A stretch of 59,109 nucleotides of DNA, the filler included, from Squatina squatina (Eukaryota): assembly GCA_031763465.1 (NCBI GenBank). It is 3 parts of 3 records of this genome, joined end to end, with 100 filler letters (N's around TTAATTAATTAA, not from the genome) between each part and the next. Parts side by side here need not be neighbours in the genome. Positions count along the whole stretch, not along the records: positions 1 to 30,392 come from JARFOE010000001.1; 2 more parts are not named here. One strand, 5' to 3'. Both the position numbers and the translations under genes were made by a program. Each line of letters opens with the position of its first letter. Positions within the stretch are counted from its first letter, which is position 1. Below, one piece after another: positions 19,323 to 19,500 of this stretch. The notes beneath the pieces are model-generated. The model was not told where the DNA came from and did no database searches. It saw nothing but the letters and a program-made list of their open reading frames with translations.

Positions 19323-19500
19323 CTTTGAAAGCAGTGAGCAGCTGTGATAATCCAACGACTGGCAATAATCGATCCGCCACAAAAATGGTTGAATTTACCC
19401 CAATGGTCAAAATAGATAGACACTTGCCAAGGCCATTCACCAGGAAGAGAAAAATGTCCACCAAAAACTCTGATTTTCATTGGATTTGATTTCCCACAAG
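19323..19500 (-). CDS. Trypsin-family serine protease exon (activation site to catalytic His), plasma kallikrein/factor XI-like by synteny
   Basis: Acceptor cttacag, donor gtatga. Reads [58 protein letters not shown]. Exon boundaries resemble the F11/KLKB1 exon that starts at the linker Cys and ends after AAHCF. It lies between MTNR1A and CYP4V2 on the expected strand. Confidence 0.85.

Follow-up and report, generated by a model that had tools for sequence, protein, structure and literature searches.

The window analysed here, a 59,109-nucleotide stretch of Squatina squatina DNA (assembly GCA_031763465.1), holds one exon of a plasma kallikrein (PK)/factor XI (FXI)-like protease among fragments of neighbouring genes. 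Its features are as follows.

2..496, plus strand: probable last exon of FAT1, a 164-aa open frame that we take to belong to this gene.
1090..1273, plus strand: MTNR1A exon 1, a syntenic marker (among PDB entries it matches melatonin receptor 1A best, E=1.4e-16; GT donor).
5629..5850, plus strand: C-terminal end of MTNR1A, 73 codons long (match to melatonin receptor 1A, E=5.6e-36).
19078..20199, no strand: assembly piece of 1122 bases carrying the protease exon, with a 100-N gap on either side and the remainder intron-like and repeat sequence.
19323..19500, minus strand: PK/FXI-like exon with the linker Cys, R-VFGG, the C42-C58 loop and His57 (AG/GT, open frame, trees).
20200..20299, no strand: 100-N gap between the exon's piece and the CYP4V2 piece.
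About 20325..20451, minus strand: one internal (middle) exon of CYP4V2, a syntenic marker (protein matches, splice sites).
53296-54939, minus strand: helical, thioredoxin-like and FN3 domains of a stonustoxin-like stretch (Pfam).
54943-55845, minus strand: SNTX MACPF domain (Pfam).

As read from its AG acceptor and GT donor, the protease exon runs on the minus strand from 19500 to 19323 (178 nt). Its 58 whole codons contain the linker Cys, R-VFGG, WPWQVS, CGGSII and TAAHC, and thus carry the Arg activation site and His57 of a chymotrypsin-fold protease domain; Pfam matches it as Trypsin (E=3.9e-14). The residue before the activation Arg (P2) is Ile, and the P2' residue is an aromatic one common to sharks and skates. 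This set of motifs occurs once in the window and in none of 100 base shuffles. Searches of the window with tblastn (seven relatives) and custom HMMs (next best E 0.5-0.9) found neither a second protease exon nor any apple exon, and an Rfam search of it returned no matches. The original prediction, which had named these motifs and described a single exon without apple domains, therefore agrees with the open frame, the canonical splice sites, the Pfam match and the searches for further exons.

How far can the surroundings of the exon be trusted? The window consists of 38 pieces (N50 1841) with 37 N runs between them, of which 27 measure exactly 100, and the order of the pieces probably comes from scaffolding on a relative. 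The caution in the original prediction that the order relies on scaffolding was well placed, as a 100-N gap lies on either side of the exon's piece. The protease exon and the CYP4V2 exon are about 820 bases apart, a distance that would have to accommodate apple exons of about 550 codons as well as CYP4V2's end, so that long stretches must be hidden in the gaps; provided that the order is correct, the single gap at 20200..20299 must conceal the end of CYP4V2 and all of the apple exons. The CYP4V2 exon is 74-83% identical to 11 CYP4V-like proteins, 10 of them from elasmobranchs, and 68% identical to that of the coelacanth; the match covers only residues about 214-257 of a 514-aa protein, and the window holds no second CYP4V2 exon. 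The predicted position between MTNR1A and CYP4V2 stands as far as order and strands within the window go, and we presume that both match the human locus; the order itself rests on 100-N joins. For the frame at 2-496, which we assume to be the FAT1 end, Pfam gave no match and the Atlas no usable one.

MTNR1A itself looks broken, with an intact exon 1 followed only by the end of the receptor. The match to this end stops inside the assembly piece at 4884-7593 and is not immediately preceded by an AG acceptor, and the motifs that we take to mark the middle helices were not found in the window. The break reflects either a real deletion or a misassembly.

Several other features of the window deserve mention. 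The stonustoxin-like coding stretch at 53296-55845 on the minus strand is divided into pieces by in-frame stops and has a GC content of 53%, compared with about 38% around it. Nearby, an acidic frame at 52360-52659 (minus strand) ends at a GT donor and has a weak match to Nop14 (E=0.00026, below the cut-off); Nop14 is presumably not a neighbour to be expected at the KLKB1/F11 locus, and the frame may point to scaffold compression or misplacement. Tandem arrays occupy 6238-7593 (59 copies of 23 nt) and 55720-56144 (12.9 copies of 33 nt). Four of seven listed runs were compared with the window. Beside the exon, a high-copy repeat at 19567-19770, whose 24-nt inverted arms lie at 19610-19633 and 19721-19744, is shared with the closely related organism A at a depth above 10000. 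In run X6 the adjoining repeat at 19757-20199 is covered to depths between several hundred and about 1900, and X7 covers part of it; differences are few, and these two runs match the repeat only, not the exon. Organism A (runs X1 and X2) gave no cover beyond about 19800, which is not proof that the repeat is absent there. This second repeat is possibly a horizontally moved transposon.

The closest relatives of the exon are consistently found in cartilaginous fish. The best six of 24 protein-search matches are chondrichthyan proteins with apple and trypsin domains (E 2e-27 to 8e-18, falling to 1e-9 thereafter), at identities over the exon of 86% in Heterodontus, 76% in Cetorhinus, 74% in Heptranchias and in Mustelus, 69% in a skate-cluster protein and 66% in Pristis, with the next match at 52%. 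The Heterodontus protein, the closest, is annotated as 'coagulation factor XI-like', and the counterpart in Mobula is 60% identical over the exon. When 328 proteins were compared, the best 16 rows all belonged to the chondrichthyan PK/FXI-like group (85.5-118 bits), and the next scored 70.9. In each of runs X1 and X2 of organism A, one contig covers 19164-19620, with an exon about 92% identical to that of the window and at least 8 differences within it. Against the PDB, FXI ranks best (55.3 bits), followed by elastase (54.0), TMPRSS6 (51.7) and TMPRSS2 (51.0), a ranking that does not separate protease families. That lack of separation, along with the gaps on both sides of the exon's piece, would suit an exon of another trypsin-fold family, such as TMPRSS, hepsin or elastase, set down here by the scaffolder. 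We regard this as very improbable and largely refuted: the exon is 48-56% identical to TMPRSS-like proteins against 86% to a shark protein that carries apples, and the trees place it with the sharks.

For the protease tree we used 61 rows, including the window exon, 4 sharks, 4 batoids, 14 sarcopterygian PK/F11 proteins and 37 outgroup rows; HGFAC and plasminogen were not among the outgroups, which did include the apple-plus-trypsin proteins P0207 and P0237, and the trees and comparisons contain no chimaera sequence. The window exon, the sharks and the batoids form one clade (100/99), sister to the 14 sarcopterygian proteins (99/95). When the tree is limited to the exon region, from which Arapaima is absent, the window still groups with the four sharks (98/97), and the link to PK/FXI is unsupported. 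The exon alone thus gives no supported tie to PK/FXI; it is the full-length relatives from sharks that supply the link. An approximately unbiased (AU) test rejected forcing the exon to group with TMPRSS2 (p=0.0002), and with the 100/99 clade this sets the gene apart from the type II membrane proteases of the TMPRSS/hepsin group. The original prediction had proposed placing the exon phylogenetically against KLKB1, F11, TMPRSS and HGFAC; it groups with the shark PK/FXI-like proteins, in a tree from which HGFAC is absent. The further suggestion that the locus predates the split of jawed vertebrates is supported by the chondrichthyan clade and its sister position to PK/F11.

The full-length relatives show how the shark gene corresponds to its tetrapod counterparts. 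Six apples are present in the complete models of Cetorhinus, Heptranchias, Pristis, Amblyraja, Leucoraja and Rhinoraja and in two transcript-length Logan contigs. There are seven in two isoforms, nine in Mobula and 17-18 in Mustelus, whereas the Heterodontus model, with five, seems to be incomplete; the range among orthologs is 5-18. By comparison, all six sarcopterygian proteins counted have four, a caecilian model that looks like two fused sets having been left out. In sharks, apples 5 and 6 fall with PK/FXI A3 and A4 (95/92 and 100/99; in a second tree 98/90 and 99/99), and residues 211-811 of the Heptranchias protein run collinear, from one end to the other, with both human PK (583 bits) and human FXI (580 bits). 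It follows that the extra apple pair is N-terminal and that PK and FXI share this gene as their pro-ortholog. The predicted model (pLDDT 77.7, pTM 0.53), in which the two leading apples are less certain, fits the solved disc of four apples at 1.4 A, an agreement to be expected of an alignment rich in PK/FXI rows. We are therefore confident that the exon comes from the pro-ortholog that sharks have of both KLKB1 and F11; the gene would lie beside CYP4V2, its other exons having been lost from a fragmentary scaffolded assembly. The exon shows no departure from the shark pattern and is another species' copy of a known gene.

Narrower assignments fit less well. If prekallikrein proper is defined by exactly four apples, the relatives fall outside it with the six of their complete shark and skate models. 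Factor XI proper is contradicted by the Ile at P2 in the window and by the retention of both A4 cysteines in all four sharks; the platypus FXI model likewise lacks Pro before the activation Arg, so a P2 Pro is not a strict FXI feature.

Database records indirectly back the adjacency to CYP4V2 in other species. Our proxy for synteny was record length together with accession spacing rather than coordinates, and it covers the CYP4V2 side, without MTNR1A. Among the 11 chondrichthyans with both a PK-like and a CYP4V2 model, 10 have the two on a record of the same length, the exception being Rhincodon, in which CYP4V2 is on a 25-kb record. Accession order is taken to follow genome position, and the two accessions are 12-14 apart in five of the 11 (Cetorhinus, Amblyraja, Leucoraja and two Chiloscyllium); such closeness was not seen in the other six species, and in the coelacanth, our control, the accessions are 3 apart.

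Might the gene have lost, or be losing, its protease function in this species? Signs of decay are seen among its relatives. None of five batoids has the full canonical protease set: P1 is His in Pristis and Mobula, residue 189 is Glu in three skates, Ser195 is replaced by Leu in Leucoraja (a loss also present in a Logan contig) and Asp102 by Asn in Rhinoraja; a segment missing from Mobula may be an annotation fault. In four carpet-shark species there are apple-only models built of the first apple pair, and in each species a model ends at the same linker. These may be split annotations and may explain an earlier negative result for the whale shark; no carpet-shark copy of the exon is among the 24 protein-search matches, which is weak evidence. 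The exons for Asp102 and Ser195 are, moreover, not among the window sequence. All the same, a decaying copy seems improbable in Squatina, where the exon keeps its reading frame open, is bounded by canonical splice sites, has every key residue and groups with four sharks that each keep P1 Arg, the His-Asp-Ser triad and Asp189; in the X1 contig of organism A, all four gaps fall outside the exon.

If the protease is intact, it would, by inference from its family, be a secreted monomeric zymogen like PK. The zymogen activation site, the linker Cys and His57 are seen in the window itself, and Asp102, Ser195, Asp189 and the apples are known from relatives. A single cut after the Arg would create a new Val N-terminus and switch on an Arg/Lys-specific protease, which would stay disulfide-linked to the apple disc. 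The apples may recognise glycans carried by microbes or by damaged surfaces, in the manner of fish kalliklectins, so that the bound enzyme could localise kinin release or other proteolysis. A glycan-guided plasma protease, in effect a lectin-guided one, is thus the likeliest role, which by analogy we put forward tentatively. It is suggested by the mannose-binding lectins among catfish PK/FXI-like proteins and kalliklectins (PMC10499198 and PMC3219417) and by the recurrent apple-only or catalytically damaged forms in sharks and rays. Factor XII is reported to be absent from cartilaginous fish in PMC10499198, and their kininogens to lack D5/D6 in PMC8706920; with these docking domains and factor XII missing, the apples most likely bind glycans.

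Alternatively, this same gene could encode a genuine clotting enzyme of the contact pathway or of the FXI type, which HGFA or thrombin would activate and which would cleave factor IX. The scores of human PK and FXI against the shark protein are nearly equal (583 and 580 bits), HGFA is present in Heterodontus according to a preprint (10.64898/2026.10.23.761479), and two skates carry the P2 Pro that a passage of PMC10499198 lists as an FXI feature. Against these points, the window has Ile at P2, and both A4 cysteines, the monomeric PK state, are kept in four of four sharks. The preprint also records no aPTT-like response of bullhead shark plasma in either assay, with human fibrinogen or a chromogenic substrate used. 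That result, together with the reported absence of factor XII and kininogen D5/D6, makes contact-activated clotting unlikely, and we think that the gene probably does not encode such an enzyme. The name contact-system protease serves here as a family label and not as a statement of function.

That cartilaginous fish have a PK/FXI-like gene of early origin is correct and already known. At least nine sharks and rays have NCBI models that bear the name 'plasma kallikrein-like' or 'coagulation factor XI-like'. The review PMC10499198 cites Tsutsui et al. 2023 (J Mol Evol 91:536) for an origin in jawed vertebrates, as does the preprint 10.64898/2026.10.23.761479. Absence from cartilaginous fish is stated in passages of PMC3835742 and of PMC9643190, the latter with Callorhinchus as its sole cartilaginous fish. 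The exon thereby backs the 2023 correction of the statement, persisting in papers of 2013, 2020 and 2022, that PK/FXI first arose in lobe-finned fish. The window adds only one species and one exon, and the testable value lies in full-length genes from better assemblies. Limited searches did not find the six apple domains, the carpet-shark apple-only forms or the batoid protease damage in print, Tsutsui 2023 being the likeliest place for them; this comparative pattern in the relatives might be the only new part.

Ray-finned fish complicate the picture. The original prediction had followed the view that these proteases are absent from teleosts, which is outdated given the catfish PK/FXI-like proteins and the apple-plus-trypsin protein of Arapaima. 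The Arapaima gigas protein P0163, and likewise P0237 and P0207 from two other sources, combine apples and trypsin with intact catalytic motifs. The protease domains of Arapaima and of P0237/P0207 do not join the clade of sharks and PK/F11 (for Arapaima, p=0.022 in an AU test that was chosen after seeing the tree), a position that either paralogy or fast remodelling would explain. Apple-only proteins also occur as P0243 and P0316 in Pleurodeles waltl, on records of other lengths than PK, and as P0197 and P0294, so kalliklectin-like proteins may not be limited to fish. A grouping of teleost apple 3 with one salamander apple-only protein (98/86) was not recovered in a second tree.

Taken together, these patterns, which come from database models, allow a broader and more doubtful reading. 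In sharks, the true ortholog of the ancestor of KLKB1 and F11 may persist as a lectin-protease with six apples, with ray-finned fish retaining only a sister paralog. The N-terminal apple pair would have been amplified within the gene (14 copies in Mustelus) or made into a whole protein (carpet sharks, with one shared truncation point), and rays and skates would be losing catalysis by several routes. If so, the ancestral job was glycan recognition, and the contact system was a later co-option in lobe-finned fish; the carpet-shark truncation would explain 'absent in whale shark', and the A4 disulfide of the PK type would predate lungfish. Sharks offer a living test of the enzyme's work at a time before factor XII and high-molecular-weight kininogen arose.

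How does this gene compare with known systems? The ray-finned kalliklectins and PK/FXI-like proteins share its apple repeats, and those of Arapaima, P0237 and P0207 its trypsin domain as well, but their protease domains and third and fourth apples lie outside the shark plus PK/F11 clades, and most are apple-only lectins. Mammalian F11 equals PK in overall similarity and is the best PDB match of the exon; it differs in that the window has no P2 Pro and sharks have no free A4 cysteine (Cys321), which is used for dimers, and passages of PMC10499198 and PMC3835742 hold that FXI arose by later duplication. KLKB1 of tetrapods and lobe-finned fish resembles the shark gene in its sister position (99/95), in the linker Cys of the exon and in the P1 Arg, triad, Asp189 and paired A4 cysteines of the shark relatives. 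Unlike KLKB1, those relatives have six or more apples instead of four and VFGG or IFGG in place of IVGG, and its partners, factor XII and kininogen D5/D6, are the ones reported absent in cartilaginous fish (PMC10499198 and PMC8706920). Contact-system PK docks on high-molecular-weight kininogen, is switched on by FXIIa and frees bradykinin. The closest likeness is to the chondrichthyan PK/FXI-like gene itself, with which the window exon shares a clade, at 66-86% identity to six of its proteins and 60% to that of Mobula.
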